NCBI GenBank assembly: GCA_003142535.1
Contig: PLMQ01000039.1
Span: 394-51,966, forward strand
Direction: 5' to 3'
DNA from: Syntrophaceae bacterium
GTDB lineage: Bacteria > Desulfobacterota > Syntrophia > Syntrophales > Smithellaceae
Length of the DNA stretch: 51,573 nucleotides
The position numbers and the translations under genes were made by a program. Within the stretch, counting starts at the first letter, position 1, and every line of letters starts with the position of its first letter. A model generated the notes under the pieces. That model was not told the DNA's origin and did no database searches. It worked only from the letters and a program-made list of their open reading frames with translations. Shown here in pieces: positions 2,508 to 49,861 of the stretch.

Positions 2508-2629
2508 GGGCTGTTGAAAAACGCTCATCTACGGCGTTGCGCTGCAAACCTAACCGCTCAACGTATATCTATATACGCCTCGCGATTCGGTTTTTGCGCG
2601 CCTTGTATCTGAGCATTTTTGACCAGCCC
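2508..2629 (-). repeat. palindromic intergenic repeat, family A copy 1
   Basis: Imperfect terminal IR (gggctgttgaaaaacgctca ... tgagcatttttgaccagccc); reverse complement shares caaggcgcgcaaa, gaggcgta and tgcagcgcaacg with 10577-10720. Confidence 0.85.
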
Positions 2630-10544: not shown

Positions 10545-10576
10545 GGGTGTAATGAACTTGAAGAAAACAATTTTTC

Positions 10577-10720
10577 GACGACCCTATAAAATGTTCCAGA
10601 GGCAAGGCGCGCAAATACTGAGAAATGAGGCGTACTTTTACGTACGCCTCAATGACGAAGGATGCAGCGCAACGTCACCTAAAGGTGATAAACAGAATAT
10701 GGACATTTTATGAGGTCGTC
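10577..10720 (+). repeat. palindromic intergenic repeat, family A copy 2
   Basis: Terminal IR gacgaccctataaaatgttcca / tggacattttatgaggtcgtc; central hairpin tgaggcgtac...gtacgcctca; homologous to 2508-2629. Confidence 0.85.
10675..10692 (+). mobile_element. 18-nt hairpin micro-element
   Basis: TCACCTAAAGGTGATAAA is an exact 18-nt insertion relative to family A copy 1. Confidence 0.75.
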
Positions 10721-10733
10721 AGGGGAGATCGAG

Positions 10734-12857
10734 ATGAAATATTTAACTATGGAAGTAACAAAAGATGGGATCGCTATTGTTACCATTGATTGTCCGGAAG
10801 GCAAAGTGAACAAGGTATCATCGGGACTTCTGAATGAAGTAGCCGGTAACTTGAATGAGATAAATAATGATAAGAGCATCAAGGGCATGGTTATCGTGAG
10901 CGGCAAAGAAGACAACTTTGTTGTCGGCGCGGATATTGATGAATTGAAAGGAATGCGCACCTCTGAGGAGGTAATTGCTTACATAACCAAAGGCCACGCC
11001 ATCCTCAATACTCTGGAGAGCATGAATATCCCCGTGGTCGCCTGCATTCACGGCAACTGCCTCGGCGGCGGGCTGGAATTGGCGCTCGCCTGCAATTACC
11101 GTATGGCTGTCAACTCCCCGCAAACGGTTATGGGATTTCCGGAAGTGCAACTGGGGCTGCTGCCCGCTGCCGGCGGCACACAGCGGCTGCCCCGGCTCAT
11201 CGGCCTGACTGCGGCGCTGCCCCTGCTACTCACGGCGCGTAATCTCCGGGCGAGACAGGCCAAAAAAGCAGGATTGGTTGATGAACTTGTTCCTCCCTAT
11301 GGTGCGAAGGAAGCGGCAGCCAAGAAGGCGCTGGAACTGGCACAGAGAGGAAATATCAAAAGAAAGCTTAAGCGTTCTTTTGTCTCTTTCCTTCTGGAAT
11401 CCAACCCAGTAGGAAGGGCAATAGTTTTTTCGCAGGCCAGAAAGATGGTTACGCGCCAGACTTACGGCTGTTACCCTGCGCCTTTTGCTATTATTGAAGC
11501 CGTAGAATGCGGGCTGAAAAACGGAAAGGCCGCTGGCCTGAAAAAGGAGATAGAACTTTTCGGCAAACTGGTTATCACATCACAGTCCAAAGCTCTCATG
11601 AGCCTTTTTTTCGGCATGACCGATCTGAAAAAAAATCCTCAGAAAAGTCTTGCCCGCAAAGTGGGGAAAATGGCAGTTATCGGCACGGGTTTGATGGGGC
11701 ATGGTATTGCCTCTGTCTCCACGGCCATCTGCGATACAATACTGATGAAGGATGTGAGCCTTGATGCCGCCGCCCGCGGAATGAAGGAACTTTGGAAAGG
11801 CTTGGAAAAGAAAGCCAAATCGGGCGCAATAGTCGCGTTTGACCGCGATGTCCAGTACGGCAAGCTAATTGCGTGCGATGATTATTCCCTGTTTAAAAAT
11901 ACCGATCTGGTAGTGGAGGCAGTGTTTGAGGATATTGCCTTGAAAAAACGCGTTCTGGCCGATGTGGAAGCCGCGACAAGCGAACGCACCATTTTCGCTT
12001 CCAATACTTCGGCTATCCCGATTGCGGATATCGCCGCGGGATGCAAAAGGCCGGAAAATGTCATAGGGATGCATTACTTCTCGCCTGTGCCCAAAATGCC
12101 GCTCCTGGAAATCATTACCACCGATAAAACCGCGCCGTGGGTGACTGCTACAGCCCTGGATATGGGCATCGCTCAGGTAAAAACCTGCATCGTCGTCAAG
12201 GATGGCCCCGGTTTTTACACAACGCGCATTTTGTCGCCGATGCTCAATGAAGTTATCCTTCTGCTGGAAGAAGGAGCCATTCCTAACGATATTGACCGCG
12301 CTATGCGTCAGTTCGGCTATCCCATCGGCCCGGTAGCCCTCATTGATGAAGTGGGCATTGATGTCGGCGCGCATGTGGCCAAAGAACTCTCTCCAATGTT
12401 TTCTAAAAGAGGCATGGCCGGTTCGAGTAGCCTTATGCAATTATTTGCCCGCGGTTATTGCGGAAAAAAGAACAAAAAGGGATTTTATCTCTACGATGTA
12501 AAAAAGAAGAAAGGTCAGAAGCTGCCTAACGAAGAAGTTTATGCCCTTCTCGGTGGCGTGCCTCGTAAAAAGTTTGCCGTGGAATTGATCCAGCAGCGAG
12601 TAAGTTCGATGATGATAAATGAAGCGTTGATTTGTTTGCAGGAGGGCATCATTTTCTGTCCGCGTGACGGAGATATCGGCGCGGTTTTCGGTTTGGGATT
12701 TCCGCCCTTTGAGGGAGGCCCGTTCCGTTATATAGATCATCTGGGCGCTTTCTGCATTGTGGCTATGCTGGAATCTCTGGAAAAAATTTACGGGAAGCGC
12801 TTCAGTCCGCCGCAGATTCTGAAGGATTTGGCCAAAAGCGGCAAGAAATTTTATTGA
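10734..12857 (+). CDS. fadJ: fatty acid oxidation complex alpha subunit (enoyl-CoA hydratase / 3-hydroxyacyl-CoA dehydrogenase)
   Basis: FVVGADI, CLGGGLE and PEVQLG crotonase motifs; GTGLMGHGIA, EAVFE, SNTS and GMHYFSP HAD motifs; GFPPFEGGPF. Confidence 0.9.
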   Translation: MKYLTMEVTKDGIAIVTIDCPEGKVNKVSSGLLNEVAGNLNEINNDKSIKGMVIVSGKEDNFVVGADIDELKGMRTSEEVIAYITKGHAILNTLESMNIPVVACIHGNCLGGGLELALACNYRMAVNSPQTVMGFPEVQLGLLPAAGGTQRLPRLIGLTAALPLLLTARNLRARQAKKAGLVDELVPPYGAKEAAAKKALELAQRGNIKRKLKRSFVSFLLESNPVGRAIVFSQARKMVTRQTYGCYPAPFAIIEAVECGLKNGKAAGLKKEIELFGKLVITSQSKALMSLFFGMTDLKKNPQKSLARKVGKMAVIGTGLMGHGIASVSTAICDTILMKDVSLDAAARGMKELWKGLEKKAKSGAIVAFDRDVQYGKLIACDDYSLFKNTDLVVEAVFEDIALKKRVLADVEAATSERTIFASNTSAIPIADIAAGCKRPENVIGMHYFSPVPKMPLLEIITTDKTAPWVTATALDMGIAQVKTCIVVKDGPGFYTTRILSPMLNEVILLLEEGAIPNDIDRAMRQFGYPIGPVALIDEVGIDVGAHVAKELSPMFSKRGMAGSSSLMQLFARGYCGKKNKKGFYLYDVKKKKGQKLPNEEVYALLGGVPRKKFAVELIQQRVSSMMINEALICLQEGIIFCPRDGDIGAVFGLGFPPFEGGPFRYIDHLGAFCIVAMLESLEKIYGKRFSPPQILKDLAKSGKKFY

Positions 12858-12988
12858 TGAAACTCCAATTCCGAAAGCGCAGCGTAACGGAATTGGTAAG
12901 TTGAACAATCCCGCGAAGCGGAGGGTATAATACTCCGAAGCTCGCTGCGAAATGATTCCAAAGATTGTTTTGGGGTTTATACCCGTGA
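12857..12988 (+). repeat. intergenic repeat family B copy 1
   Basis: tgaaactccaattccgaaagc ... gcggagggtataatac ... ttggggtttatacccgtga, shared with 17436, 30440-30680 and 42637. Confidence 0.85.
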
Positions 12989-13002
12989 CGAGGGATAAGC
13001 AC

Positions 13003-14187
13003 ATGCCCGGAGCGCTGCAAGGCCTGAAGATTCTCGATTTTACGACTATGTTGCCCGGTCCCTACGCCACAATGATGATGGCGGATCTGGGCGCGGATGT
13101 GCTGCGGGTGCTCGCAGGCTCGCGCCCTGATGTAACTGTTTTTATGCCGCCGGCCATTCCCGGCACGGATATGTCCGCGGCGGCAGCCTGTCTGGGGCGC
13201 GGGAAACGCTCCATAACCCTGAACCTGAAAGATCAAAGAGCCGGAGAAATCATCCGGCGCCTTATCCGGGAATATGACATTGTCATTGAGCAGTTTCGCC
13301 CCGGCGTTATGGAAAAATTCGGTCTCGGTTATTCATCTTTGAAAGAAGCAAATCCCCGCCTTATCTACTGCTCGATCACCGGTTACGGACAGACGGGTCC
13401 CCTGCGCGGCCGCGCCGGTCACGATATTAATTATCTGGCCCGTTCGGGAATTATGTCCTACAGCGGACGAAAAGATACGGGGCCTGCGCTTTTAGGTGTG
13501 CAGATAGCCGATGTTAGTAGTGGAGCGCAAAACGCTGTCATCGGCATTCTTGCTGCTGTTACCCATCGTTTGACTACCGGTTGTGGGCAGTATCTGGACG
13601 TGTCAATGACAGACGGGGCGCAGGCGCTCAATGCCTTGTTCGGAGCCGGCTTTCTAGTGGATGGAGAAGAACCGGCACGCGAAGAGACAATTTTAAACGG
13701 CGGATGCCTCTATGATTTTTACGAAACGCGCGATGGCCGGTACTTAAGCTTCGGGCCTTTGGAGTCCGCATTTTTCAACGCCTTTTGCAAAGCCATTGAC
13801 CGCCCCGATCTGATGGCTGCGGGAGTCGCTCCGGCCGATGGCGGCGGCAAGATTAAAAATGAACTTTGCCATCTCTTCAAAACAAAGACGTGTGATGAAT
13901 GGACAGAATTTTTTACCGGACTTGATGTCTGCATTGAACCCGTCTTGACCATGAGCGAAGTTGCCGCCGATCCGCAGACACAAGCGCGGCAGATGATTGT
14001 GGATGTTCCCTTGCCTGACGGCAAAACAGTCCGGCAATTTGCTAATCCCATAAAGTTCTCAAAAACCCCTCCGCAGTATCGGTTTGCCGGTCTCCCCGCG
14101 GGGACACATAACCGGGAAGTCCTTCTGGGGCTTGGTTATACCGAGGAGGACATCGCAGCATTTAAAAAATCCGGTTTGTTTGATTAA
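13003..14187 (+). CDS. CaiB/BaiF class III CoA-transferase / alpha-methylacyl-CoA racemase family
   Basis: LPGPYATMMMADLGADV, RGKRS, EQFRPGV, SITGYGQTGP and GHDINY motifs. Confidence 0.92.
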   Translation: MPGALQGLKILDFTTMLPGPYATMMMADLGADVLRVLAGSRPDVTVFMPPAIPGTDMSAAAACLGRGKRSITLNLKDQRAGEIIRRLIREYDIVIEQFRPGVMEKFGLGYSSLKEANPRLIYCSITGYGQTGPLRGRAGHDINYLARSGIMSYSGRKDTGPALLGVQIADVSSGAQNAVIGILAAVTHRLTTGCGQYLDVSMTDGAQALNALFGAGFLVDGEEPAREETILNGGCLYDFYETRDGRYLSFGPLESAFFNAFCKAIDRPDLMAAGVAPADGGGKIKNELCHLFKTKTCDEWTEFFTGLDVCIEPVLTMSEVAADPQTQARQMIVDVPLPDGKTVRQFANPIKFSKTPPQYRFAGLPAGTHNREVLLGLGYTEEDIAAFKKSGLFD

Positions 14188-14332
14188 ACGGTTCGGCTGG
14201 AGATTTTTAATGGCAGATGTAAAATATTTCGCTCGAACGCATAAAAAATATACCTCGAAAGAGAGATAAATGAAAAACAAAATATCCGGAAATGCTGGAT
14301 ATTTCACAAAAGGAGATATGGCCAAATAATCC

Positions 14333-14400
14333 TTGACATTATTGTTCACTGTTGTATTATGTTCACTATAAAATGAACATAAGAAGAAGGTAAACATTAT
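14333..14400 (+). promoter_or_regulatory. promoter and 27-bp imperfect inverted-repeat operator of the AbiE-like pair
   Basis: TTGACA 14333-38, TATTAT 14355-60; IR arms 14339-14365 and 14374-14400 with perfect inner TTATGTTCA/TGAACATAA. Confidence 0.65.
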
Positions 14401-14401
14401 A

Positions 14402-15085
14402 ATGCAACATAAAATAATGCGGAATATTTTTGCCGATAAAGCAACGCTGGTTTTAAGAAAGATGCTTTTGTCACCCGAAAAGGCGTGGGTAGTACGTGAT
14501 TTTGTCGGCGCTGATGGCGTCAGCATCGGTATGGCCCAGGGTGTGCTGGTAGCGATGGATAAACGGGGTTATATTGAAAGGAACAAACGGGGTCCTGCCA
14601 GCTATGTTCTTTTAACAAATACCGAAAAGCTCATCAGTGACTGGCTGGGGGCATACCGTTTTGAAATAAACCACACCGACACCTATTATTCTCCGGATAA
14701 AAATATTCTATCAAAGCTCAAGAGCTATCTGAAAGATAAAGAATATGCCCTTACCCTGCATACGGGTGCCAATTTAATAACTTCTTACGTCATAACAGAT
14801 CATGTCTATTTATATTTTAAACCGCAGAACCGGGAAAAAGATATCCTGGAGCTAAGGCAAGCGTCGGACTTAAAGGAACTGGTCAGAGGCGGTAATATTC
14901 ACGTCATTCATCCACACTATGAAAACAGCGTTTTTTGCAACTTACAAAGCATAAAGGGATTCAAAGTTGTTTCTAATCTACAACTTTATTTGGATCTTTA
15001 CCATTTCCAGCCGCGCGGGCAAGAACAAGCTGAATATCTTAAAACCATGATAGAAGAAAAAGAAAAGAACTTCTATGGCACTTGA
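14402..15085 (+). CDS. type IV TA antitoxin, AbiEi-like (wHTH + AbiEi_2/DUF2186-like domain)
   Basis: N-terminal HTH (VSIGMAQGVL..GYI), YALT..GA and VSNLQLYLDL...RGQEQAE motifs; overlaps downstream nucleotidyltransferase. Confidence 0.75.
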   Translation: MQHKIMRNIFADKATLVLRKMLLSPEKAWVVRDFVGADGVSIGMAQGVLVAMDKRGYIERNKRGPASYVLLTNTEKLISDWLGAYRFEINHTDTYYSPDKNILSKLKSYLKDKEYALTLHTGANLITSYVITDHVYLYFKPQNREKDILELRQASDLKELVRGGNIHVIHPHYENSVFCNLQSIKGFKVVSNLQLYLDLYHFQPRGQEQAEYLKTMIEEKEKNFYGT

Positions 15086-15866
15086 TAAAATTGAATCAAT
15101 TTTTCTCTCTGTTCTGGAGGACATTAAGGATTATCTCCCGGATCTCACAATCGTCGGTGGCTGGATTCCATACATTTATTCAAATTATCTTTGGAATAAT
15201 TTTGTCAATATTCCCGTGACCACTGCCGATATTGATTTTGGTGTAGATCAAGACATTGCCGGAAATTATCCCAAAACCATTTTTCAAACTCTCTCTTCGT
15301 TAAATTACAAAGAAAAGCACCTGCAAATGGATAAGCTGTTTCCTGTTGTGCTTTACAAAGATAAAATACCCATTGAATTTATTACCTATCCAGATGTGGA
15401 CATTACTAAAATCGATAATTTTGTCGGCAGACAGATTCAAATTAATAAGATTGATAAATTTGATTTTCTTCTAAAAAATAGAATCCAGATTGACATTAAG
15501 GCAAAACAGACAAACAAGTTATATCGTGTTAACTGTCCAAAGCCTTCGGCTTTTCTATACCACAAAACTGTTATTTTTACTGATAGACTCAATAACAAGA
15601 AACAAGCAAAAGACTTGTATTACATGTATTTTATTTTACGGTACGCGCCGAATATTGACGCTATTATTGAAGAGATTTCTCAATACAGAACAGAGTCCCA
15701 TTTCAAATATTTTCATGAGAATCTATCGCAGTATTTCGGGAGAATATCAAGTCCGGGCTGCCTTTTAGTGGAGCAGGAAAACGGCCCTGACCCGTATATT
15801 CTTGATGTGCGTAAGGATATATTTGACCGGTTTAAAAATCTGCAGGACAAAATCAAGCACGCATAA
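15075..15866 (+). CDS. AbiEii/GSU2403-like nucleotidyltransferase-fold toxin
   Basis: IVGGW, TTADIDF (DxD), FLYHK and AKDLYY motifs; AT-rich; translationally coupled to the antitoxin. Confidence 0.72.
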   Translation: MALDKIESIFLSVLEDIKDYLPDLTIVGGWIPYIYSNYLWNNFVNIPVTTADIDFGVDQDIAGNYPKTIFQTLSSLNYKEKHLQMDKLFPVVLYKDKIPIEFITYPDVDITKIDNFVGRQIQINKIDKFDFLLKNRIQIDIKAKQTNKLYRVNCPKPSAFLYHKTVIFTDRLNNKKQAKDLYYMYFILRYAPNIDAIIEEISQYRTESHFKYFHENLSQYFGRISSPGCLLVEQENGPDPYILDVRKDIFDRFKNLQDKIKHA

Positions 15867-16465
15867 TGGAGGTGTATTTGAAGAATCGGCTAAAACGCTT
15901 CCTGTCGCTAACGGGGTCAGAAATAGTTATGTTACTGTTTTTGATGATGACAGCCTTATCCATGATGCCTGGGAATGTTTGGGGAGAAGAACTTTACACG
16001 TACACAGATAAAGATGGGAATATCTTTATAACAAACATACCTCCTCAAGAAAATATTAACTCCAATACCAGGAAGAGTAATTCGTATCAAGGTCAAACAC
16101 CGCCTCAAGAGAATATTAACTCCAATACCGAGAAGAGTAATTCGTATCAGGATTCAACCCGAGAGGGGCGCTTACATTGGGGAAGAGACAATGCATTAAT
16201 TGATGCAAAGAAGAAAGGTAAAAAGGGACAACGTAACAAAGTTAAGGATAGCGGAGGTATTGACGCTGGTGTGTATAAAGTAAAAATTAAGAAAGTCGGC
16301 AGTAATTTATATCGGGATATTTATACAAACATTATTATCAAAACCAAAGCTTGTGTTGAGTTGGCAGGCGGGGATGAAGCTTTATTGGAGTGGTCTGATG
16401 TTTCCGGCGAACTTTTTTTCAGAAATATGAAAAATTCATGTATAGTTAAAAAAGTTTATAAATGA
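15866..16465 (+). CDS. exported DUF4124-domain protein
   Basis: Signal-like hydrophobic segment then ELYTYTDKDGNIFITNIPP; internal 20-aa duplication; start uncertain. Confidence 0.65.
   Translation: MEVYLKNRLKRFLSLTGSEIVMLLFLMMTALSMMPGNVWGEELYTYTDKDGNIFITNIPPQENINSNTRKSNSYQGQTPPQENINSNTEKSNSYQDSTREGRLHWGRDNALIDAKKKGKKGQRNKVKDSGGIDAGVYKVKIKKVGSNLYRDIYTNIIIKTKACVELAGGDEALLEWSDVSGELFFRNMKNSCIVKKVYK
16039..16158 (+). repeat. 60-bp tandem duplication inside CDS
   Basis: PPQENINSNTRKSNSYQGQT / PPQENINSNTEKSNSYQDST, period exactly 60 nt. Confidence 0.9.
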
Positions 16466-16588
16466 ATATGGAATAGTTCATTGAAAAAGAACGGATCGGG
16501 GCTAAAACCATTAAAAAACAAGACGCGCGTAAAACGCTTCCTATCCCGTATGGCAAGCCTACGGGATAAATCTCTAATATGAGGTGGG

Positions 16589-16703
16589 TTTACCCCGTTA
16601 GAGATTAAATGACTTATGCACTATGTTTCTGTATCAAAAAACATCAAAGAAGGTAAATTATATAAAGTATGTTATGATCTATGCCTATCTCTAACGGGGT
16701 AAA
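16589..16703. mobile_element. 115-bp MITE (family C) with 17-bp perfect terminal inverted repeats
   Basis: tttaccccgttagagat (16589-16605) / atctctaacggggtaaa (16687-16703); AT-rich non-coding interior. Confidence 0.85.
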
Positions 16704-16719
16704 TTAAAAGGAGGAAAAT

Positions 16720-17419
16720 ATGAAAAATAATTGTTTGTTTGTCCTGAAGAAAATTGCAGTGCTTGTTTTGATAGTTTTTAGTTTGGGCATATCAGGTTGT
16801 GCTACTATCAACCCCAGCCTTTACAGTGTCAATATGCGGTATGACGCGGCGCAGGCCGTTATTCCGGCATATTTACAAGCCGAAGGAAAAACGCGTGGCG
16901 CTATTATTTCTGTAGCGGAATTCACCGACACACGCCAGGTGGATGATAAAAAAATAATCGGTCGAGTGAGAGAGAGACGATTCGAAAGTTCCTATATTCT
17001 TAAAGGATGTTATACCTGCCAAGGCTGTCGCTAATGGTATTAAGGAATATTTGAAAAAAGCCGGTTATAAAGTTGCCGATAAGATTGTACAATGGGATTT
17101 GAAAGAAGAAACCATGCCGAAGGGAAACGGCAAGATTATTATCGGCGGCAGCATAGAGGAGCTGGGAATAACCTGTTGGACAGGAGCTTTTAGTAACTCT
17201 TATAAGACCAATGTGAAGCTGACCATTGTTATTGCGGATTTGGCCAAAGGCAAGATATTATATACAAGCAAAGTGGAAAGTTCGTCTTCCAGGGATGATG
17301 TTTCCTTTTCTGAAGAGGAAATCGGAGGGCAGTTAAGTACTGCTCTGGGCGATGCCATTGAAAAAGTATTTGAAGATAAAGCTGTAGCGCAAAAGTTAAA
17401 AGAAGCTATCACCCAATAA
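16720..17419 (+). pseudogene. lipoprotein (YajG-like) split by a frameshift in a (GA)5 tract
   Basis: GGAGG RBS, lipobox ISGC; frame of 17051-17419 is open back to about 16976 (DDSKVPIFLKDVIPAKAVANGIKEYL); (GA)5 at 16968-16977. Confidence 0.75.
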
Positions 17420-17435
17420 ATTAATTTAACCGCGG

Positions 17436-17480
17436 CGGGTATAATACCCCACAGCTTGCTTTGGGGTTTATACCCGTGAT
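17436..17480 (+). repeat. repeat family B, terminal hairpin only
   Basis: cgggtataataccccacagc-tt-gctttggggtttatacccg hairpin, matching the 3' ends of the 12857 and 30528 copies. Confidence 0.8.
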
Positions 17481-17518
17481 TATAAATTATACTAAACTTT
17501 ACAAACACTAATTATCGC

Positions 17519-19402
17519 ATGACTAAAGAACAGGTATTAAAAAAATATTTCGGTTACGATTCGTTTTTTCCATTACAGGCGGAAATAATAGACCATGTGC
17601 TTTCACTTAATGATGCACTGGTTTTAATGCCTACAGGTGGAGGAAAATCCGTTTGTTTTCAGATTCCGGCATTAATGTTTGATGGTGTCACTATAGTCAT
17701 TTCGCCCTTAATTTCATTGATGAAAGACCAGGTAGAGGCACTCAAAGCAAACGGCATCGCAGCAGAATTTCTCAATAGTTCATTATCAGCCAAAGAAGAA
17801 AATTTTATCATTGAACAAAGCTTAAAAGGAACATTAAAATTATTATATATTTCACCGGAACGTTTAAGCTCGGCAGGATTTATCGAATTACTGGGCAGAT
17901 TAAAAGTATCAATGTTTGCAGTGGACGAGGCACATTGTATTTCCTTCTGGGGACATGATTTCCGGCCTGAATATAAGCGATTAAACATCCTGAAAGAACG
18001 ATATCCCAACGTTCCGCTCATCGCGCTTACCGCTACAGCCGACCGTGTAATTCGCCGCGATATTTTGTCTCAATTACACATACCGGAAACTAAAACCTTT
18101 GTGGCATCTTTCGACAGACCGAACTTAAGCCTTGCTGTCCGGCCTGGATTAAAGCGCATGCGCCAGATAACCGATTTTCTCAAACTTCATCGTCGCGAGC
18201 CCGGAATCATTTATTGTCTCAGCCGTAAAAATACGGAAAGTGTAGCGGCAAATCTAATTAAAGCAGGTTACAAAGCAAAGCATTATCATGCCGGGATGGA
18301 TAATAATGAGCGCAGTCGGACACAAAATGAATTTATTCGCGATGAAATTCAAATTATTTGCGCCACGGTGGCTTTCGGCATGGGAATAGACAAATCGAAC
18401 GTCCGCTGGGTGATTCATTACAATCTGCCTAAAAACATTGAAAGCTTTTATCAGGAAATCGGCCGTTGCGGCCGCGACGGTTTGCCTGCCGACACCATAC
18501 TCTTTTACAGCTATGCCGATATAATGGCGCAAACCGAAATGTTAAAAGAGGCGACAACGGAGCGTCGGGAATTGTTGGATGCCAAGCTCAGAAGGATGAA
18601 GCAATATGCGGAAGCAGAAAGCTGCCGCAGACGAATTTTGTTAAGCTATTTCAATGAAGCAATTACCAAAGATTGCGGCAATTGTGATGTTTGTGAAAAT
18701 CCCCCGCAGAAATTCGATGGAACTATCATAGCGCAAAAAGCGCTCTCGGCAATTGCGCGCACCCATGAGCAAATTAATTTCAGTCTTTTGATTGATATTT
18801 TGCGAGGCTCACACAACCGGCAAATTATTGAAAAAGGATACGATAAAATTAAAACCTGGGGTATTGGCAAAGATATAAAATTCGAGGAATGGTCGGATTA
18901 TATTTTTCAGTTACTCAATTTAGGATATGTTGATATCGCTTATGATGAGGGATATACGTTTAAGTTAAATGAGCTAAGTCATCTGGTTTTGAAAAACAAA
19001 GCTAATGTCATGCTTGTAAAATTCAGACCTTACAAAAGCCGCGAAGAGCTGACTTTACCTAAAGAACCGCCTAAAAAAGCAGTGCTTAATCAAGCTCTAT
19101 TCGATCGTCTCAAACAACTGCGCAGAACCATTGCCGACCAGAATAACATTCCTGCCTACATTGTTTTCAGCGATAAAACTCTGCAGGATATGACTGAGAA
19201 AATGCCTACTGATAAAATATCGATGCTGGAAGTGAACGGTGTGGCCCAGCAAAAATTTGCCACTTACGGTAAACTGTTTCTCGATGAAATATCAGGATTC
19301 ATGAGCGATGAAGCTGTCCAAGGAAACAAAATAAAAGAGTCAGGAGCAGAAGGGAACAAATTAAACAACGGTAAAAGCGCTTTTAGGCCACAAGCCATGT
19401 AA
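17519..19402 (+). CDS. recQ: ATP-dependent DNA helicase RecQ
   Basis: MPTGGGKS, VDEAHC, LTATA, QEIGRCGRDG; Zn motif CRR...CGNCDVC; RQC and HRDC (PAYIVFSDKTL) domains. Confidence 0.95.
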   Translation: MTKEQVLKKYFGYDSFFPLQAEIIDHVLSLNDALVLMPTGGGKSVCFQIPALMFDGVTIVISPLISLMKDQVEALKANGIAAEFLNSSLSAKEENFIIEQSLKGTLKLLYISPERLSSAGFIELLGRLKVSMFAVDEAHCISFWGHDFRPEYKRLNILKERYPNVPLIALTATADRVIRRDILSQLHIPETKTFVASFDRPNLSLAVRPGLKRMRQITDFLKLHRREPGIIYCLSRKNTESVAANLIKAGYKAKHYHAGMDNNERSRTQNEFIRDEIQIICATVAFGMGIDKSNVRWVIHYNLPKNIESFYQEIGRCGRDGLPADTILFYSYADIMAQTEMLKEATTERRELLDAKLRRMKQYAEAESCRRRILLSYFNEAITKDCGNCDVCENPPQKFDGTIIAQKALSAIARTHEQINFSLLIDILRGSHNRQIIEKGYDKIKTWGIGKDIKFEEWSDYIFQLLNLGYVDIAYDEGYTFKLNELSHLVLKNKANVMLVKFRPYKSREELTLPKEPPKKAVLNQALFDRLKQLRRTIADQNNIPAYIVFSDKTLQDMTEKMPTDKISMLEVNGVAQQKFATYGKLFLDEISGFMSDEAVQGNKIKESGAEGNKLNNGKSAFRPQAM

Positions 19403-19780
19403 TTTATAAACCATAGCGCAACTAAAACTCACGACAAGTCTTGTCAATTTGCACAATTAAGTAATACAAAAAATGTTGTCCCTAAATTATACTCTTTGCA
19501 GCAACTCAATTACTTTGATTTTCAGATTAAACAAGTATATAAAAACATTAATTCTTTTAAATTCGTTATTTGTCAGGCAAGCCTCAAAAAGGCAAAAAAG
19601 TAAGATTGGGATTGATATGGGGGATGTACCACGATTTTATAAAAAGGTAATTTTAAAAATAATTGGACGCTGTTGTCCCTCGTTTCTCACGACCACATCA
19701 TTATTGGCGTTGATGCATATTTAAGCTTTGCGGATGAAGGAATAATGGAGTAAATAGTAAATATGACCAAAGGAAAGGTT

Positions 19781-19816
19781 GAGAGTTAAACCTTTGATCT
19801 TGACAATTGGCTACAT
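19781..19816 (+). repeat. repeat family D copy (ctttgatcttgaca core)
   Basis: ctttgatcttgacaattggctacat is nearly identical to 22540-22564. Confidence 0.6.
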
Positions 19817-19865
19817 CAATTTGCATATAGCGGCGATTTGCAGAACAAGTAAATAGGGATAGTAC

Positions 19866-20693
19866 ATGCAACGTCTTAATGTAAAACAATCGCAGATTAG
19901 AGAATGCATTGAAAAATCCCTCTTTGCGGTAAATAAAGTGCCTCGTTTTCATAAAGGGGAAATTCTTCTATTACAGCTTGTAAAAGACGAGGCTAGGGAG
20001 TTTGGCAAATTGCAAGAGCGGATTGAATTTGCTCTTGTATATGATCGCTGCGAAATTGATCATACAGGCGTGATAAGCCGACAACATTGGCCACAGGCAG
20101 GAAAGACATGGGAATATATCCTCGTTTGTTCTGACACGATACCTACTATTCCGTTTAGCTTGGAAGATTTACCACTTTCAAAAAACTACGCCGGACAAAC
20201 TAATCCCCTAGCAATTAGCCAAGAAGACGAAGCTGTGATATCCTCCTATGTTTGGGGTAGATTGAATGGCTATGCACTTAGAGATACATTTGGTCCGAGT
20301 TTGGTTAAAGAGGCACTTGCTAACTATGATGTGGTAAACAAACCAGCACAACCAAGAAAAATCTTGATTCCTGAACATGAAGAATTCTATCGAGATACCT
20401 TGTTAGCTGAATCATTAAAATCTATCTATGATCACAGATGTCAGGTTTGTGGTATGAATTTTAAAATCAAGTACGAAAAACCATTTTCAGAAACGCACCA
20501 TATTCATTCTTTGAGTCAAGGCGGCTTGGATATCAGCAAAAACATTATCGTCATCTGTCCGAATCATCACCGAATAATCCATAAAACTAGTGCTGAATTT
20601 GATCGCGCAAAATTTTTATACAAATATCCAAATGGTTACGAAGAAAGGTTAATACTGGCAGACCACTTCGAACAAAAATCATTTTGGACGTAA
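19866..20693 (+). CDS. HNH endonuclease (McrA-like C-terminus) with uncharacterised N-terminal domain
   Basis: CQVC...ETHHIH..GG..N..CPNHH motif in the C-terminal third. Confidence 0.82.
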   Translation: MQRLNVKQSQIRECIEKSLFAVNKVPRFHKGEILLLQLVKDEAREFGKLQERIEFALVYDRCEIDHTGVISRQHWPQAGKTWEYILVCSDTIPTIPFSLEDLPLSKNYAGQTNPLAISQEDEAVISSYVWGRLNGYALRDTFGPSLVKEALANYDVVNKPAQPRKILIPEHEEFYRDTLLAESLKSIYDHRCQVCGMNFKIKYEKPFSETHHIHSLSQGGLDISKNIIVICPNHHRIIHKTSAEFDRAKFLYKYPNGYEERLILADHFEQKSFWT

Positions 20694-20752
20694 ACAGAAA
20701 TAATCGGGGATGGTTCGATTTAATTGTTTTAATTTTCTGGATTTACCCTAAA

Positions 20753-20806
20753 TAACCTGACCACCTGATACCCTGAAGGGCACAAGAGGTGGCAAGAGGT
20801 CACAAG
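20753..20806 (+). mobile_element. three nested copies of an 18-nt hairpin micro-element
   Basis: TAACCTGA[CCACCTGA[TACCCTGAAGGGCACAAG]AGGTGGCAAG]AGGTCACAAG = 3x18 nt. Confidence 0.8.
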
Positions 20807-20824
20807 CCGGAATGACGGCGGTGG

Positions 20825-20877
20825 CTGGATTCCCCGGTCACCCGGCATCCGCCGGGCAAGCGAGCCGGGGAATGACA
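20825..20877 (-). repeat. CGTC-type REP interrupted by a small hairpin insert
   Basis: ctggattccccggtca...agccggggaatgaca with cccggcatccgccgggcaag inside. Confidence 0.7.
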
Positions 20878-20928
20878 AATGGGATAAGACTTTCCAGCGG
20901 TTATTAATATTTTTAAGAAGGAAAAGCG

Positions 20929-22479
20929 ATGCGCCAAATCAAGAGTAAACGTTACGGCCAGGGGAATCAATTTAAAAGAATATATCTTGTCGCGCCGCGT
21001 CATCCGGATAATTTTTGGTCAATGCAAGGAACGGTCGAGCTTTTGGGCGCCAAGACCCTGATGCCCAATGCCGCTCTGGCCACGCTAATGGCTCTGACGC
21101 CATCTGGAATAAACGTAGAATATGTCTTATGCGATGAAAACGTCTCAGAGCTGGATTGGAACATGCCCTGTGATTTAGCCGTGATCACCGGCGCGACGTT
21201 GCATCAAAAAAGGATACGTGAGCTTTGCTCCGGCTTCCGGCAAAAGGGTATTCCAGTAGCGCTCGGCGGAGCTTATGCCAGCATTAATCATGATCTATGC
21301 ACTAATCTGGCTGATTTTCATTTTATCGGCGAGGCCGAATACACCTGGCCTGCTTTTCTGCAGCAATGGATTAAAGGCAACGCAATGTCTGTTTATCAAC
21401 AAAACACATACGTTGATTTAAAAGATAGCCCCGCGCCGGATTGGTCTCTGATTAATGCCAAAGATTATATTAATATCAGCGTGCAGACTTGCCGTGGCTG
21501 TCCCAAAAGCTGCGATTTTTGCGATGTTATTCAGTATGTGGGCCGAAAACCGCGCACCAAATCAGTGGAACAGGTAATGCGGGAAGTAAAAAATGCGCAT
21601 TTAATAGGCGCGCGCACTGTATTTTTTTCCGATGATAATTTTCTGGCCAATAAAGTATTTACGCAGCAGCTTCTTGCCGAATTAATCACATGGAATAAAG
21701 AACAGACCCGTCCGCTTTCATTTTCCACGCAGATTACCGTGGAAATAGCGGATGATGAAGAATTGCTGCGGATGTGCGCCGATGCCCGCTTTTCTGTTCT
21801 TTTTCTCGGTGTCGAGACCGTGCGGCGGGCAAGCCTGCTGGAGGTTAATAAAGGCCATAATTTAAAATATGATATTGACGAACGTGTGAACAAAATTTCC
21901 CGTTACGGCATTATGCCGTTTCTCGGTTTGATTGTTGGTTTCGATAATGATGATGAAAGCGTCTTCAATGAGCTCTACGATTTTATTGCTCGCACCAACA
22001 GCCCGATTGTCGGCATCAGCCTGCTTAATGCGCCTCGCCATACACCGCTCTTCAGTCGTCTGGAAAAGGAAGGCCGGCTCACGGGTGACGATTTTTCCGG
22101 TGAATGGCAGCTCTATACGAACATTGTTCCTAAACAGATGAGCCGCGCCACGCTTTTAAGCCATTATTGCGAGCTTTTTAAAAAAGTATACGATCCGGAA
22201 TTGTTCCATCATCGGCTCAATGGCTGGCTGAAGCAAGTTGATTACCAAAGTAATTTATATACGAATAAGAAGTTTGATCTCCGGCAATTATCGAATGGCC
22301 TGAAAATGATTATTTACTTTCTGCTTTTTGCCAAACCGGAAGCGAGGAAGCTTTTTCTGCAAAGTATGATAGGCACATGGAAAATAAATCCAAAACTTAT
22401 GAGACGGACATTTACATTCCTGGGGCAGTATCATCACTTCTATGAGTTTGTCCAAAAAAAATTACCCGAAAGGATTTAA
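20929..22479 (+). CDS. B12-binding radical SAM protein (DUF4070-like C-terminus)
   Basis: VALGGAYAS and FIGEAE B12-domain motifs; RGCPKSCDFC (CxxxCxxC); FSDDNF; LGVET. Confidence 0.87.
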   Translation: MRQIKSKRYGQGNQFKRIYLVAPRHPDNFWSMQGTVELLGAKTLMPNAALATLMALTPSGINVEYVLCDENVSELDWNMPCDLAVITGATLHQKRIRELCSGFRQKGIPVALGGAYASINHDLCTNLADFHFIGEAEYTWPAFLQQWIKGNAMSVYQQNTYVDLKDSPAPDWSLINAKDYINISVQTCRGCPKSCDFCDVIQYVGRKPRTKSVEQVMREVKNAHLIGARTVFFSDDNFLANKVFTQQLLAELITWNKEQTRPLSFSTQITVEIADDEELLRMCADARFSVLFLGVETVRRASLLEVNKGHNLKYDIDERVNKISRYGIMPFLGLIVGFDNDDESVFNELYDFIARTNSPIVGISLLNAPRHTPLFSRLEKEGRLTGDDFSGEWQLYTNIVPKQMSRATLLSHYCELFKKVYDPELFHHRLNGWLKQVDYQSNLYTNKKFDLRQLSNGLKMIIYFLLFAKPEARKLFLQSMIGTWKINPKLMRRTFTFLGQYHHFYEFVQKKLPERI

Positions 22480-22516
22480 TTTCATAGGAAAGACCCAGGG
22501 ACAGATATTGTCATTG

Positions 22517-22640
22517 GGCGTGGAGGGTCAACTCTTTGTCTTTGATCTTGACATTTGGCGACATTAAACGTGTATTGTATCTCGTGAAGCGCAAATAATA
22601 AAATCACATAGCACGTGAAGCGTAAAGTGCAAATAATGAA
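22517..22640 (+). repeat. repeat family D copy plus cgtgaag heptamer tract
   Basis: ggcgtggagggtcaa..tcttt..cttgacatttggc, repeated at 23477; followed by cgtgaagcg repeats. Confidence 0.7.
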
Positions 22641-22787
22641 AAGTCATTTGTCTCTCGTGTGTTTATTCCGGGGACATAACACCTATTTCTACAGCCGATA
22701 AGTCCAGCCATTCCTGGCTTTTCGGCGGACAATAATTTTTTTTAAACCGTTTTTGAGGATGTATCAACATCTTCTCGTTATCCTCAT

Positions 22788-22816
22788 TTGACATGCCCAA
22801 CAGGAAGTTGTAGAGT
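22788..22816 (+). promoter_or_regulatory. sigma70 promoter of nitroreductase
   Basis: TTGACA-17bp-TAGAGT upstream of the GGAGGT RBS. Confidence 0.55.
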
Positions 22817-22848
22817 TCTCCTCGTAATACTTTCAGGGAGGTGCCACA

Positions 22849-23454
22849 GTGGAATTATCAGACGTTATCGCTTCACGCAGGAGCATTCGTAAATTCAGGC
22901 AGGAGGATATTTCAGCTGATACAGTCCGCCTGCTTCTGGATGCCGCGCGGCTTGCCCCTTCGGGATCAAACCTTCAGCCCGCGCGCTTCATCGTCGTTCA
23001 ATCACCCGCCGCCAAAGAGGCTCTTGGCCGGTTTACGCCCTATAAGTTTATTGTCAAGGCAGCGGTTATTTTTGTCTGCTGCGCCGATCTGACGGCCATG
23101 ACAACAAGAGATAACCGCATCGGAGAACTCTTTCAAGAAGGCGTCTTTGAAGGTGTCGAGATAGATACGAGTGATGCTTCAATCACCACTAGCCCTATCA
23201 TGGCTGCGGAAGCGGTTAAGGCCTATCTATCTATGAATGTAGCGATTGCTATAGAGCACATCGTTCTTAAGGCCGTTGATCTGGGTCTGGGCAGTTGCTG
23301 GCTGGGAAGGTTTGATCGCGATAAGGTAAAGGAGTTTCTGGCGCAAGACGATAGTATCTACCCGATTGTGCTTCTGCCTGTGGGGTATCCTGATCAATCA
23401 CCCAAGGCCAGACCGCGTATAGCTTTGGACAAGTTGGTGCTGAAGACAATCTAA
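22849..23454 (+). CDS. nitroreductase family protein
   Basis: RRSIRKF, APSGSNLQP, LGLGSCW, VGYP and PR motifs; GTG start after GGAGG. Confidence 0.92.
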   Translation: MELSDVIASRRSIRKFRQEDISADTVRLLLDAARLAPSGSNLQPARFIVVQSPAAKEALGRFTPYKFIVKAAVIFVCCADLTAMTTRDNRIGELFQEGVFEGVEIDTSDASITTSPIMAAEAVKAYLSMNVAIAIEHIVLKAVDLGLGSCWLGRFDRDKVKEFLAQDDSIYPIVLLPVGYPDQSPKARPRIALDKLVLKTI

Positions 23455-23476
23455 GCCAATCCCAAATTTCAATAAA

Positions 23477-23550
23477 GGCGTGGAGGGTCAAATCTTTTTT
23501 CTTGGCAATTGGCAATCCAAAAATCGTAAAGCGTGAAACGTGAAGCGTAT
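23477..23550 (+). repeat. repeat family D copy plus heptamer tract
   Basis: ggcgtggagggtcaaatcttt..cttggcaattggc, then cgtaaag-cgtgaaa-cgtgaag. Confidence 0.7.
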
Positions 23551-23732
23551 AGGGCAAGGACATGGTGGGCAATGACAGCGGAGATAAAAATATTTTCTAT
23601 TTTTTGACTCTCTCGAGCGCGAAAACGACGGCGTTATCAGTGTCAAGGCACTGCAATTCTTTTTTCATTCAGTCATCCAGTTCTTGACAATAACCGTATA
23701 TTTGAAGTATTTAATACCGAAAGGGAGGAAAT

Positions 23733-24158
23733 ATGCCGCCGGACGACCAGGTATCCCGATATGAAATCAACCGGAACGTTAGGATGGTTCTCACGCGCCA
23801 TGATGTAGATCTGACAAGGATAGACTACTCCTTTATGGGTAGTACGGTTTATCTCTACGGTGAGCTGGTCCGGCCAGACAGGGATTATTTCGCTAAGGAG
23901 ATCGATTTCATTGTTGGGGAAATTGCCGCCTTACCCCACGTGCGTGATATCCAATTTGACCTCAACAACTGGTTAGTGATCCCTTCGGGGAATTCCTGGC
24001 GGATAACCAAAACAGGGAAATCCGCCGTGACGCGCGCGGCAGGCTCTTTGGCAGATTCCACCGTCGTTATCGATAAGGCGGAAAAGCTAACGGATGTTCT
24101 GAATGATCTTGCACCGGACTCAAAAAAAGAAGATGACGCGCCGACCCATCACAAGTAA
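23733..24158 (+). CDS. hypothetical protein, possible BON-like fold
   Basis: GGAGG RBS; helix-strand-strand(G.VYLYG)-helix-strand pattern reminiscent of BON; low-complexity tail. Confidence 0.6.
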   Translation: MPPDDQVSRYEINRNVRMVLTRHDVDLTRIDYSFMGSTVYLYGELVRPDRDYFAKEIDFIVGEIAALPHVRDIQFDLNNWLVIPSGNSWRITKTGKSAVTRAAGSLADSTVVIDKAEKLTDVLNDLAPDSKKEDDAPTHHK

Positions 24159-24450
24159 GACCGTCTCATCGTTTCAATCCGGGAGCATCATTCATGACGT
24201 TTAAGTCTTCTATCCTTACTCCTCTTACCCTGATTATATGTTTTTTTTCTTCTGTACCGGCCCCGGGTAAATTGGGTCAGCGCCATATTTTTTTCTTTCT
24301 TAATACTTGAATTCGATTTTGACATTACAAGTTAATAAAGACCTACGACATGCAAGGCTTGCCGGTATCACAATAAAGGATTATCTCTTTATTCAAATCT
24401 TTACCTGCCGCTATTCAGCAAGGCAGGCAAAAGGCAATACGACGTTCTCT

Positions 24451-24479
24451 TTGACATGAAAGATATTAGATGGTAGGTT
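24451..24479 (+). promoter_or_regulatory. sigma70 promoter of resB-ccsB
   Basis: TTGACA-17bp-TAGGTT with extended -10 TG. Confidence 0.5.
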
Positions 24480-24515
24480 TCATTAAATATTAACGCGTAC
24501 AAGGAGCATGTTAAG

Positions 24516-25898
24516 TTGTCGCTAAAGAAAAACTCCCTGTGGTCATTTTTCTCTTCCGTAAAACTGACAATTACCCTTCTTGCGCTAATTGTTCTTGTCT
24601 TCATTGCAGCTACCTTCTTGCCTGCGTATGAAGTATTTCAAACATTTACTAAGCAGCTTTCACCGGGTGCGGCTAAAGTTTTTCTCTTTTTGCAGTTGTC
24701 CGATCTTTATCATTCTCCGCTATTCTATTTCCTGATGACCCTTCTATCGCTCAACCTTATAATCTGTTCCATAAATCGTTTCCCCGCATTATGGAAGCAA
24801 TACAAGGCTCCGCATTTTCCGGAACCGGCTGGCATCTTCGATAGTCTTCCTCAGAGCCAGATTATTACAGGAAATAAAGAAATCAGTAAAATAAAACCAA
24901 TCGTAGCATCGTGCCTGAAAAAAAATTATGGTTCCAGCAAAGAAGCTGATACGGAAAGAGGATACCTTTTTTATGCTGAAAGGGGGCGGCTCTCTCTCTT
25001 TGGCGTTTACATTGTTCACCTGAGCATTTTAGTGATGATTGCCGGAGCGATTATCGGCTCCATCTTTGGGCTCACGGCCGATATCAATATTAAAGAAGGC
25101 GAATCCGTCAATGTTGCCACTCTTTCAAAAGGCAATGGAATACATAAGCTGGATTTTTCAGTCCGTTGCGATAAATTTATTGTTGAATTTTACGAAGATG
25201 GCACTCCAAAAACTTACCGCTCTGACTTAAGCTTTATTAAAAATGGACAAGTTGAGAGGCAGGGAACGCTGCTGGTCAATCACCCCATCAGCTTCGATGG
25301 GTTTCGTTTCTACCAGTATAGCTATGGTGCAGCGCCGGATATCAAGGCAATAGTCACGTACACAACCGCCGGTAAGAAGGGCGGCTCAATGGCGCTCGCT
25401 GCCGGAGATACCTTTGATTTACCGGGCAGCAAAGCCAGGGGCTTTGTCTTGCGTGTTGAAGAAAATATTATGCAGCGGGGACCAGCCATCAAGTTGAGAA
25501 TTATTTCACCAAAAAAGGATATCCAGTTCTGGGTGTTTCAGCAACTTGACCAGCTCATAGCCATGAATCCCAACCTCTTGACTGAAGTGCCTATGTTCAA
25601 TCCCGGTCTTTTCACGCCCTTTGTTTTTTCCATCGACCGGATCGAACAACATTATTACACCGGTTTGCACCTCGTCCGTGATCCCGGTGTACCTCTTGTT
25701 GCACTGGGAGGATTGCTCATGATTGCCGGTATGATAATCGTCTTTCTTATGTCGTATCAGCGTTTTTGGGTGCGGATGAAACAAGAAGGAGCAAAAATCA
25801 GCATTAGCATTGCCGGCTGGAGCAACCGGAATAACCAGCAACTACAAAATAAAATCGATTATTTATGCAGGCGAATCAAAGAGGAGATAAAAGCATGA
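24516..25898 (+). CDS. resB: cytochrome c biogenesis protein ResB/Ccs1
   Basis: FFSSVKL, DLYHS, YIVHLS (conserved His), VNHP, YQ and TGL..RDPG motifs; TTG start after AAGGAG. Confidence 0.88.
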   Translation: MSLKKNSLWSFFSSVKLTITLLALIVLVFIAATFLPAYEVFQTFTKQLSPGAAKVFLFLQLSDLYHSPLFYFLMTLLSLNLIICSINRFPALWKQYKAPHFPEPAGIFDSLPQSQIITGNKEISKIKPIVASCLKKNYGSSKEADTERGYLFYAERGRLSLFGVYIVHLSILVMIAGAIIGSIFGLTADINIKEGESVNVATLSKGNGIHKLDFSVRCDKFIVEFYEDGTPKTYRSDLSFIKNGQVERQGTLLVNHPISFDGFRFYQYSYGAAPDIKAIVTYTTAGKKGGSMALAAGDTFDLPGSKARGFVLRVEENIMQRGPAIKLRIISPKKDIQFWVFQQLDQLIAMNPNLLTEVPMFNPGLFTPFVFSIDRIEQHYYTGLHLVRDPGVPLVALGGLLMIAGMIIVFLMSYQRFWVRMKQEGAKISISIAGWSNRNNQQLQNKIDYLCRRIKEEIKA

Positions 25899-26743: not shown

Positions 26744-26857
26744 ACCAATCTTAATCAAAACTTACATAAGATTATAAAATTTGATAGATAATCGTCGACT
26801 GTTCTATTTAAATTCCTTATCAGCCCTGGTTTTCCTTTGATAGTAGCTTACCGCAGC

Positions 26858-28663: not shown

Positions 28664-28719
28664 GTTCTCTCACCTGTTCTATTTATGCCGCCAGTAAGTA
28701 ACTGGCAAAAAACGCCGCA

Positions 28720-30351: not shown

Positions 30352-30439
30352 AGTTACCTCCTTAAAATATGAATGTAAGTCCGAAACAATTTGCATAGCT
30401 TACGGCGCGTGGACATCTTTGTCAAATATTGTTTCTTGT

Positions 30440-30680
30440 TGAAACTCCTATTCCGAAAGCAAAGCGTATAACCTAAAGGTCACAAGCTGAAGCTTGCTGG
30501 TCGAATTATCCCGCACAGCGGAGGGTAATGAGACCCAAACTTCAGAAACAAAGTGCGTAACCTAAAGGTCACAAGCTGAAGTTAGCTGGTCGAATTACCC
30601 CGTGTTAGCAGGGGTATAATACCCCAAAGCGAGTTTAGGAATATGTTTCCAAAGCTTGCTTTGGGGTTCATACCCTTGAT
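30440..30680 (+). repeat. repeat family B, tandem copies each carrying the 18-nt micro-element
   Basis: Copies begin about 30440 and 30528; TAACCTAAAGGTCACAAG at 30469-30486 and 30558-30575; terminal gggtataatacccc...ggggttcataccc hairpin. Confidence 0.85.
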
Positions 30681-49729: not shown

Positions 49730-49861
49730 GAGAGCTTTGCACAACCCCTCTAATCGTCATACCGGCGAAGGCCGGTATCCAGGAAACACTTGATAATACT
49801 GGATTCCGGTTTTCACCGGAATGACAAAATTCGTGGTTTTATACAGTTGTGCAAAGGTCTC
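49730..49861. mobile_element. 132-bp MITE with 16-bp TIRs, 5-bp flanking direct repeat and internal REP doublet
   Basis: gagagctttgcacaac / gttgtgcaaaggtctc (1 mismatch); AAACT at 49725-29 and 49862-66; REP arms 49756-82 and 49799-825. Confidence 0.85.

Follow-up and report, generated by a model that had tools for sequence, protein, structure and literature searches.

The stretch of DNA considered here (51,573 nt, hereafter the window) comprises positions 394-51966 of contig C10 in a 2.93-Mb Smithella-like assembly (G000; 70 contigs, 43% G+C), and it carries several copies of an 18-nt unit lodged within larger palindromic repeats. The copy from which this study proceeds lies between the stop codon of a thiolase gene and the start of a fadJ-like gene, the closest relatives of the latter being found in metagenome-assembled genomes (MAGs) of Smithella, Smithellaceae or Syntrophaceae. 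This spacer is occupied on the + strand by a repeat of ~145 nt with inverted ends cgacgacc...ggtcgtc (10576..10720), which is copy 2 of a host repeat that we term family A. Within it, at 10675..10692 (+), stands the unit TCACCTAAAGGTGATAAA, a TCACCT/AGGTGA variant with the tail TAAA, between gcagcgcaacg and cagaatatggacatttt (cagaatatgg) at the 3' insertion site of the family. An earlier examination of the letters alone (the sequence-only reading) had claimed that two copies of this repeat differ by exactly 18 nt at this point, and this is borne out: copy 2 is filled at 10675-10692, while copy 1 (2520..2625, - strand) is empty, running gcagcgcaacg|ccgtagatgagcgtttt (ccgtagatg) across the junction between 2535 and 2534. 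Copy 2 has a further unit site nearer its 5' end (taaaa|tgttccagagg, ~10591|10592), which is empty.

In all, the window holds exactly six units, all on the + strand and each preceded by a purine, a count of the sequence-only reading that we reproduced by finding units, excising their 18 nt and rescanning, a search run on the whole G000 genome with the reversed genome as control. Three of the six form an exact three-deep nest of 54 nt at 20753..20806 (+), TAACCTGA[CCACCTGA[TACCCTGAAGGGCACAAG]AGGTGGCAAG]AGGTCACAAG, where a TAACCT unit surrounds a CCACCT unit that itself surrounds a TACCCT unit, in agreement with the nested copies earlier recognized at 20753. The remaining two are consensus units, TAACCTAAAGGTCACAAG. 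The first, at 30469..30486 (+), marks the exact joint of a chimeric host (30440-30520) made of two hairpin modules, a CCAATTCCGA module on the left and a AAACTTCAG module on the right. The second, at 30558..30575 (+), sits in the loop of a AAACTTCAG hairpin module, directly 5' of its 3' arm CTGAAGTT. Direct comparison likewise agrees with the 14 of 18 matching positions previously noted between the 18-mers of the two repeat families. Since the six copies amount to four independent sites, their shared orientation is not locally significant; the + strand of the window is G-rich (skew +0.036), which fits six plus-strand copies without making them significant. Genome-wide, the uniform orientation that had been read from the window dissolves into 199 plus-strand and 192 minus-strand units.

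Anatomy of the unit and its abundance in the genome

Within the window alone the 10-mer core of the unit is not beyond chance, with 5 matches at up to one mismatch where 2.15 would be expected, and at least as many in 10 of 100 shuffles; it is the genome-wide counts that settle its reality. Excision and rescanning yielded 391 units at 276 sites in G000 (298 in the first round, then 74, 15 and 4 in the second to fourth), as against 25 first-round matches in the reversed genome, and the number of exact consensus units rose from 62 to 100 once the inner units had been excised. The 15-mer core TAACCTRAAGGTCAC occurs 172 times in the genome and 0 times in its reversed control.

The unit is composed of a 14-nt hairpin (NNNCCTRAAGGNNN) followed by a 4-nt tail, and conforms to the pattern N-N-[A/C]-C-C-T-R-A-A-G-G-[T/G]-N-N plus the four tail bases, with CCTRAAGG as an invariant core. 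The tails have the form C-R-N-G, the common ones being CAAG, CGCG, CAGG, CGAG and CGGG, and the stems fall into the subtypes TAACCT/AGGTCA, CCACCT/AGGTGG, TACCCT/AGGGCA and TCACCT/AGGTGA. Compensatory changes among these subtypes preserve the stem: across all 437 core matches, taken without a pairing filter, positions 3/12 are A-T in 261 and C-G in 45, positions 1/14 are T-A in 245, C-G in 43 and C.A in 42, and positions 2/13 are A.C in 234 and C-G in 69. The sole frequent mismatches, A.C and C.A, become G.T wobbles on the opposite strand, and we infer from this that the folding strand would be the complement of the unit as written. Read on that strand, a four-base head (C-N-Y-G; for example CTTG or CGCG) precedes a hairpin with a stem of 5-6 bp. 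Single units are predicted to fold at -2.8 to -3.1 kcal/mol. For the one at 10675-10692 the hairpin has 5 bp and a loop of 4 nt (-2.8 kcal/mol as DNA, z -3.1), and the predicted fold of the nest at 20753-20806 reproduces its nested helices. Rfam 15 gave 0 matches at the gathering score over the whole window, and 0 at E values up to 1 over 10400-31000.

Empty and filled host sites

The status of the unit as an insert was assessed with host-junction profiles, made of 30+30 nt of unit-free junctions and searched against the unit-free genome. In each of 11 such sets the precisely empty copies form the majority, at 63-84%, with 195 empty and 84 filled in fam0, 199 and 52 in fam1, 76 and 17 in fam2, 67 and 16 in fam3, 19 and 10 in fam4, 12 and 6 in fam5, 19 and 5 in fam6, 41 and 21 in fam8, 25 and 6 in fam9, 30 and 6 in fam11, and 13 and 6 in fam12; some of these sets overlap, representing different sites in one element type, and a few of the rows counted as empty hold degenerate units which the motif missed. 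Comparison of junctions across sets fixes the boundaries of the insert as T...G and its length as 18 nt, or 19 nt in some families, and none of the 11 sets has a target duplication. The scoring of presence and absence that the sequence-only reading had proposed thus comes out in its favor, with empty copies prevailing and units at varied positions, and the opposite expectation of an 18-mer ancestral in most copies fails.

The clearest single case is a MITE-like (miniature inverted-repeat transposable element) repeat of 132 nt with 16-nt terminal inverted repeats, found at five places with unrelated flanks. The copy in the window (49730..49861, +), which is empty at 49765|49766, 49774|49775 and 49815|49816, is matched by empty copies at C12:~234.2k and C57:~18.9k, and two further copies at C21:~80.9k and ~82.0k carry three units each at three places, the rest of the element being near-identical across all five copies. 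The two filled copies are located about 1 kb apart and flank a 262-aa open reading frame (ORF). The fam2 and fam3 sets, in turn, represent one palindromic host read on opposite strands; it takes the unit after CGTA on either strand, which indicates that orientation is set by the local target and not by the host.

A second +18 difference had been claimed for a composite host, family B, between a copy placed at 12857 and another at 30440. The first (12862..12990, +; 3' of the fadJ-like gene) has a CCAATTCCGA hairpin that is indeed empty at 12886|12887 and the second is filled, but because the 30440 copy is a chimera the comparison sets homologous modules of equal length against each other, not identical ones.

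The 18-mer is accordingly a separable module and not an ancestral part of its hosts. The converse, in which the 18-mer was ancestral in the hosts and precise deletions stimulated by hairpins have since removed it from most copies, is in our view highly improbable. Small hairpins are known deletion hot spots and, for the 132-nt element taken alone, three gains and three losses are equal in parsimony; yet such a history needs the same 18-mer to have been ancestral in at least 11 unrelated junctions as well as in unrelated hairpins, empty copies are the large majority everywhere, including among diverged copies, and nesting to a depth of up to 4 and tandem arrays require gains.

Target site and placement in the genome

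Of 254 sites, 247 have a purine immediately before the unit (A 206, G 41), a rule obeyed by all the junction sets and by nests and tandems alike. The preceding four bases give the consensus C-G-Y-A^ (C 176, G 167, C or T 190, A 206), as counted over sites that are not mutually independent. A perfect 6-bp 3' arm begins 0-2 nt past the insertion point in 66 of 221 sites, as against 0-18 at points shifted by 4-12 nt, with 22 different arm hexamers represented, and a 5' arm ending just before the insertion point is present in only 7 of the 221. The typical place of the unit is the 3' side of the loop of a hairpin, immediately 5' of the 3' stem arm.

Of the 276 sites, 252 fall outside crude ORF calls that together cover 83% of the genome. 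Among the 24 inside them there is no convincing case of in-frame insertion, a use of the unit that had been suggested on account of its length being divisible by three: 14 are non-consensus, chance-like matches, 9 lie within ~100 nt of an over-extended start or in ORFs of 111-148 aa, and 1 is ambiguous (C57:33852, in a 358-aa ORF). Relative to flanking genes, units are on the same strand in 74 instances and on the opposite strand in 83. As to the strand bias that the sequence-only reading had proposed to look for, orientation shows a weak relation to GC skew, 152 to 107 (Fisher p = 0.004), over sites that are not independent.

Nesting and tandem arrays

Among 254 good sites, 170 hold a single unit; the others comprise 69 with nesting only, 11 with head-to-tail tandems only and 4 of mixed type. 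In every nest the outer unit is interrupted between its positions 8 and 9, so that each level lengthens the 5' arm by 8 nt and the 3' arm by 10 nt. Within an array the units are either in direct repeat or nested, and none of the 276 sites mixes strands.

Nesting also has a direction. In G000 TAA-type units contain CCA-type units 38 times and other TAA-type units 29 times, CCA contains TAC 11 times, and TAC contains TCA 5 times and CCA 4 times, whereas TAA inside CCA or TAC occurs 0 times. Rarity is not the cause of this absence, as 239 of the 374 good units are of the TAA type. The 21-mer diagnostic of a TAA-outer/CCA-inner nest is present 32 times in G000 and another 15 times in 9 of 40 relatives, and the 21-mer of the reverse order (CCA-outer/TAA-inner) 0 times in G000 and 2 times in 2 of 40 relatives. 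Identical 18-mers and nested 36-mer composites recur across host families, one composite appearing 9 times in at least two sets, from which it follows that a nest, once formed, travels as a block.

Distribution across relatives, loci and viral contigs

Of the 36 other family genomes, 29, spanning 6 genera, have the exact 15-mer at 1-64 copies (0 in reversed controls), and 1 of 24 genomes from the other families of the order has it in a single copy; among the sequenced relatives its count ranges from 0 to 172. Units of other genera occupy identical spots in these same host families and have the same tail variants. A 16-mer of the fam0 host occurs in 17 of the 36 family genomes, each of which has units as well, and in none of the 24 genomes outside the family.

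At the locus from which we started, the family A element is absent from the thiolase-fadJ spacer in all 17 related genome loci listed and in 18 of the 19 metagenome loci listed, the remaining one being truncated on the upstream side. The whole family A element is itself an insertion; in related loci only ~10 nt separate the stop codon of the thiolase gene from the start of the fadJ-like gene. One of the 18 metagenome loci (L110) has a different host module, an empty AAACTTCAG hairpin, in the same spacer, which has therefore been hit independently. At the position orthologous to the empty hairpin of 12862-12990, L112 has that hairpin together with a unit, L023 a shortened form, and L017 and L041 none. 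The locus is present in 20 public runs from peat or soil, with no RNA run listed among them.

The 18-mer is also found at 7 loci on viral contigs (L181-L187), in 5 of which it lies, as judged by eye, in the loop of an unrelated hairpin beside the 3' arm. These viral-contig hairpins are GC-rich, and one of them is terminator-like, with a 12-bp stem followed by a T run.

Candidate enzymes

The sole gene of G000 to pass the NCBIfam RAYT model (84.4 bits against a cut-off of 80) is at C57:20304-20993 (L088), and the unit might be conceived of as a repetitive extragenic palindrome (REP) mobilized by this protein, that is, as a miniature REP/RAYT system. The complement strand of the unit is indeed REP-like in placing a 4-nt head (CTTG, CGCG and similar) before a hairpin, orientation is fixed, target duplications are missing, and a host composite with two units adjoins the 3' end of the gene. 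Units are present on that side of the gene only, however, and the gene has a different flanking hairpin of its own, which is single-copy in G000 and forms an inverted pair around a 71%-identical homolog in G014 (L091). Moreover, none of 11 loci with RAYT homologs from other genomes contains a unit, inverted unit pairs are never seen in G000, and no match to the Y1 transposase domain (PF01797) is present in the unit-rich genomes G002 (45 copies of the 15-mer) and G018 (46). Conversely, RAYT-like genes are encoded by 18 of the 24 genomes from the order's other families, which lack the unit but for that one copy. We hence give this system very little credence and, on distribution and flanks, reject the RAYT as the mobilizer.

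Reverse transcriptases are disfavored in the same role, as G000, G002 and G007 lack a match to RVT_1. Multicopy transposase genes are almost entirely missing from the G000 genome; one multicopy pair is presumably of the IS110 type, as judged from its first residues only.

Insertion of the unit versus passive spread with its hosts

We posit that the 18-mer is probably a family-specific miniature stem-loop module, which has been repeatedly inserted as a discrete unit into DNA hairpins by an activity working in trans on folded single-stranded DNA. Under this proposal a protein recognizing the conserved hairpin would perform the insertion. The loop of the unit itself presents a site like those in the hosts, and nested stacks are the outcome. 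After insertion, copy number would grow mostly in a passive manner, through multiplication of the unit-bearing MITE-like hosts and expansion of arrays. The minimum number of independent entries is given by the unrelated contexts, namely the 11 junction sets, the types of nest, a few unique hairpins and the viral hairpins.

Several observations weigh against this proposal. First, filled copies cluster among host copies. In a comparison of each host copy with its nearest relative in five sets, the nearest copy was filled for 48 of 73 filled but 51 of 182 empty copies in fam0, for 14 of 43 against 34 of 181 in fam1, for 13 of 17 against 4 of 75 in fam2, for 10 of 16 against 7 of 66 in fam3 and for 10 of 18 against 5 of 38 in fam8; an empty nearest neighbor is still found for between a quarter and two thirds of the filled copies. 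Second, the tail variants CGCG, CGGG and GAAC track host families, in other genera too, so that many copies could go back to a small number of old insertions. As the CGCG-tailed unit in the 'gaggaagcc' host family, for instance, recurs in other genera, this recurrence of host and unit together, along with the clustering, implies that much of the copy number reflects passive amplification with the hosts. Third, hosts and units rise and fall together across genomes, and no searched genome had the fam0 16-mer without units. Fourth, the closest comparison loci are 85-89% identical at the fadJ-like protein, and no insertion event was caught; public Logan contigs (4 runs, 10620-30619) end at repeats, for example at 12908, 20802 and 30465, and the missing of an 18-nt indel at units in contigs that end in this way is neutral on polymorphism and expression. 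Fifth, the predicted folds are weak: the nest at 20753-20806 folds at -6.1 and -6.5 kcal/mol (z -0.4 and -1.0), not beyond shuffles. Sixth, the preference for the loop and 3' arm does not extend to fam2/3 or fam6, nor to one of the sites in the 132-nt element, and the unit detector demanded at least 2/3 outer stem pairs, which biases its counts toward hairpins (a bias removed only in the covariation recount given above). Finally, no candidate enzyme fits, be it RAYT, Y1 or reverse transcriptase.

Several of these observations would be accommodated by a unit that is a building block of mosaic repeats, namely a selected protein- or RNA-binding hairpin shuffled by gene conversion, copy-choice and slippage in the manner of bacterial interspersed mosaic elements (BIMEs) or BOX elements. 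The covariation of hosts and units across genomes, the clustering of the filled state by host relatedness, the host-specific tail variants conserved across genera and the near lack of multicopy transposase genes all point in this direction, and the sequence identity maintained over 6 genera fits a selected recognition site. Chimeric hosts joined at the unit, of which a strict pattern finds 3 filled and 0 empty, point the same way; these hint that units act as recombination points, and such a role between hosts may equally be part of the insertional proposal. Against a purely mosaic origin, conversion cannot carry the unit, with its exact boundaries kept, to at least 11 unrelated junctions, unique hairpins and viral hairpins; slippage does not make nests of different stem types in a fixed order; and the near-even split of orientation relative to flanking genes argues against a strand-specific RNA role. 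We consider this account rather unlikely.

Returning to insertion as a discrete unit, the sequence-only reading had gone further in proposing an independently mobile unit that parasitizes larger repeats. What stands of this is a separable module that occurs in unrelated hairpins, nests and tandems; the independence has to be tempered, as much of the copying is passive and movement of the unit at the present day is conjectural.

Relation to known mobile repeats

The usual view of mobile DNA is that it requires two ends or more and a length of tens to hundreds of bases. The unit behaves like one of the smallest mobile DNA units known, and our best reading is that it represents a new lineage of 'very small mobile repeat', which works like the small dispersed repeats (SDRs) of Nostoc and is built like a miniature REP. 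SDR4-6 were reportedly described by Elhai et al. in 2008, in volume 18 of Genome Res from page 1484, as sequences of 21-27 nt nested in each other and in the hairpins of MITEs. To our knowledge, as far as literature searches reach, this is the one description of units of ~20 nt precisely entering hairpins, and full-text searches returned no report of such repeats in Smithella or Syntrophales. Both SDR4-6 and the unit are tens of nucleotides long, hairpin-forming and non-coding, with precise presence or absence within similar sequences and a habit of inserting in other repeats and of nesting. They differ in size (18 nt against 21-27 nt) and in host lineage, Smithella-like syntrophs as opposed to cyanobacteria, for which reason we speak of the unit as working like an SDR and not as a member of that group. 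Directional nesting and conservation over 6 genera are documented for the unit, and this likeness is one of behavior. Passages in papers that cite the SDR work (PMC5861425, PMC4390886) place SDR5 of the Nostocaceae precisely between the third and fourth bases of HIP1, and according to one of these papers the HIP1-rich cyanobacteria examined yielded no SDR-like repeat outside the Nostocaceae.

The unit resembles REPs in being a short extragenic palindrome of hundreds of intergenic copies, with a putative 4-nt head and a hairpin, in clusters and tandems. It is distinct from them in that units are always direct, often nested, and unlinked to a RAYT gene or its distribution; its head, C-N-Y-G, also departs from the GTAG of classical REPs, and its 18 nt are fewer than those of typical REPs. 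REPINs were presented by Bertels and Rainey (2011; PMC3116915) as inverted REP doublets flanking their cognate RAYT; REP sequences and RAYT transposases are also the subject of Messing et al. (2012; PMC3479197). The unit is not a member of the REP/RAYT class, given that it neither flanks the gene on both sides, nor co-occurs with it, nor forms inverted doublets.

A different parallel is offered by the IS200/IS605 elements, which move by a 'peel and paste' route that is single-stranded, hairpin-dependent and free of target duplication. They enter 3' of a short target in a fixed orientation, and elements of this type would be expected to show a replication-strand bias. The unit shares with them the lack of target duplication, the fixed orientation, insertion 3' of a short target (C-G-Y-A^) and the involvement of hairpins. 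It differs in having one 14-nt hairpin and not two subterminal ones, in a skew bias that is weak over non-independent sites, and in reaching high copy number in G002 and G018, two genomes without a Y1 match.

MITEs are 50-500 bp long and have terminal inverted repeats and target duplications. The 18-nt unit has neither, and it is the hosts that are MITE-like. Both MITEs and the Rickettsia palindromic elements, the source of the idea of in-frame gene insertion, are like the unit non-autonomous, hairpin-forming and dispersed, and the unit differs from the latter in that no gene insertion was found for it. BIMEs of E. coli and BOX elements of pneumococci are modular combinations of short hairpin motifs with a variable number of modules, and the host families described here are similarly modular and chimeric; we know of no such mosaic in which a module is lodged, to a depth of several levels, within the loop of another copy of itself. 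BOX elements have an entry in Table 1 of PMC3184786.

SDR-like behavior in a second, unrelated lineage would show the phenomenon to be general, and its rules are clearer in the present unit, with a fixed 8+10 nt geometry, the C-G-Y-A^ target, directional nesting and conservation in six genera. More speculatively, the Smithellaceae might possess a hairpin-loop-specific insertion activity of an undescribed kind, neither Y1/HUH nor a canonical reverse transcriptase, that takes the CCTRAAGG mini-hairpin as its recognition signal and adds modules of 18 nt on the 3' side of any suitable single-stranded hairpin loop, including that of the module itself. One possibility is templated repeat-adding synthesis at a nick in the loop, which would account for the in-phase tandems. 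We regard such an activity as unlikely, but if it is real it would provide a second, independent and more tractable instance of the phenomenon described from Nostoc in 2008, and profiling of the ~40 family genomes could find the enzyme, with the variation from 0 to 172 copies serving as a handle.

Further features of the window

Directly 5' of the nested stack, at 20744..20752 (+), stands a 5' half-unit, TACCCTAAA, whose 3' half is missing. A comparable sequence in L001 is intact and reads ctggatt[TACCCTAAAGGGCACAAG], and the half-unit may stem either from a 9-nt deletion or from an off-register insertion. The 3' part of family B, in which GGGTATAA ... TTATACCC enclose two hairpins, is located directly upstream of the next gene both in G000 and in L023, which belongs to another genus; this part may be a conserved structured leader and not just a repeat. 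In the assembly as a whole, 79 of the 86 runs of N consist of exactly two N, and of all 86 runs 34 fall within 40 nt of a unit core; unit arrays seem to break or confuse short-read assembly.

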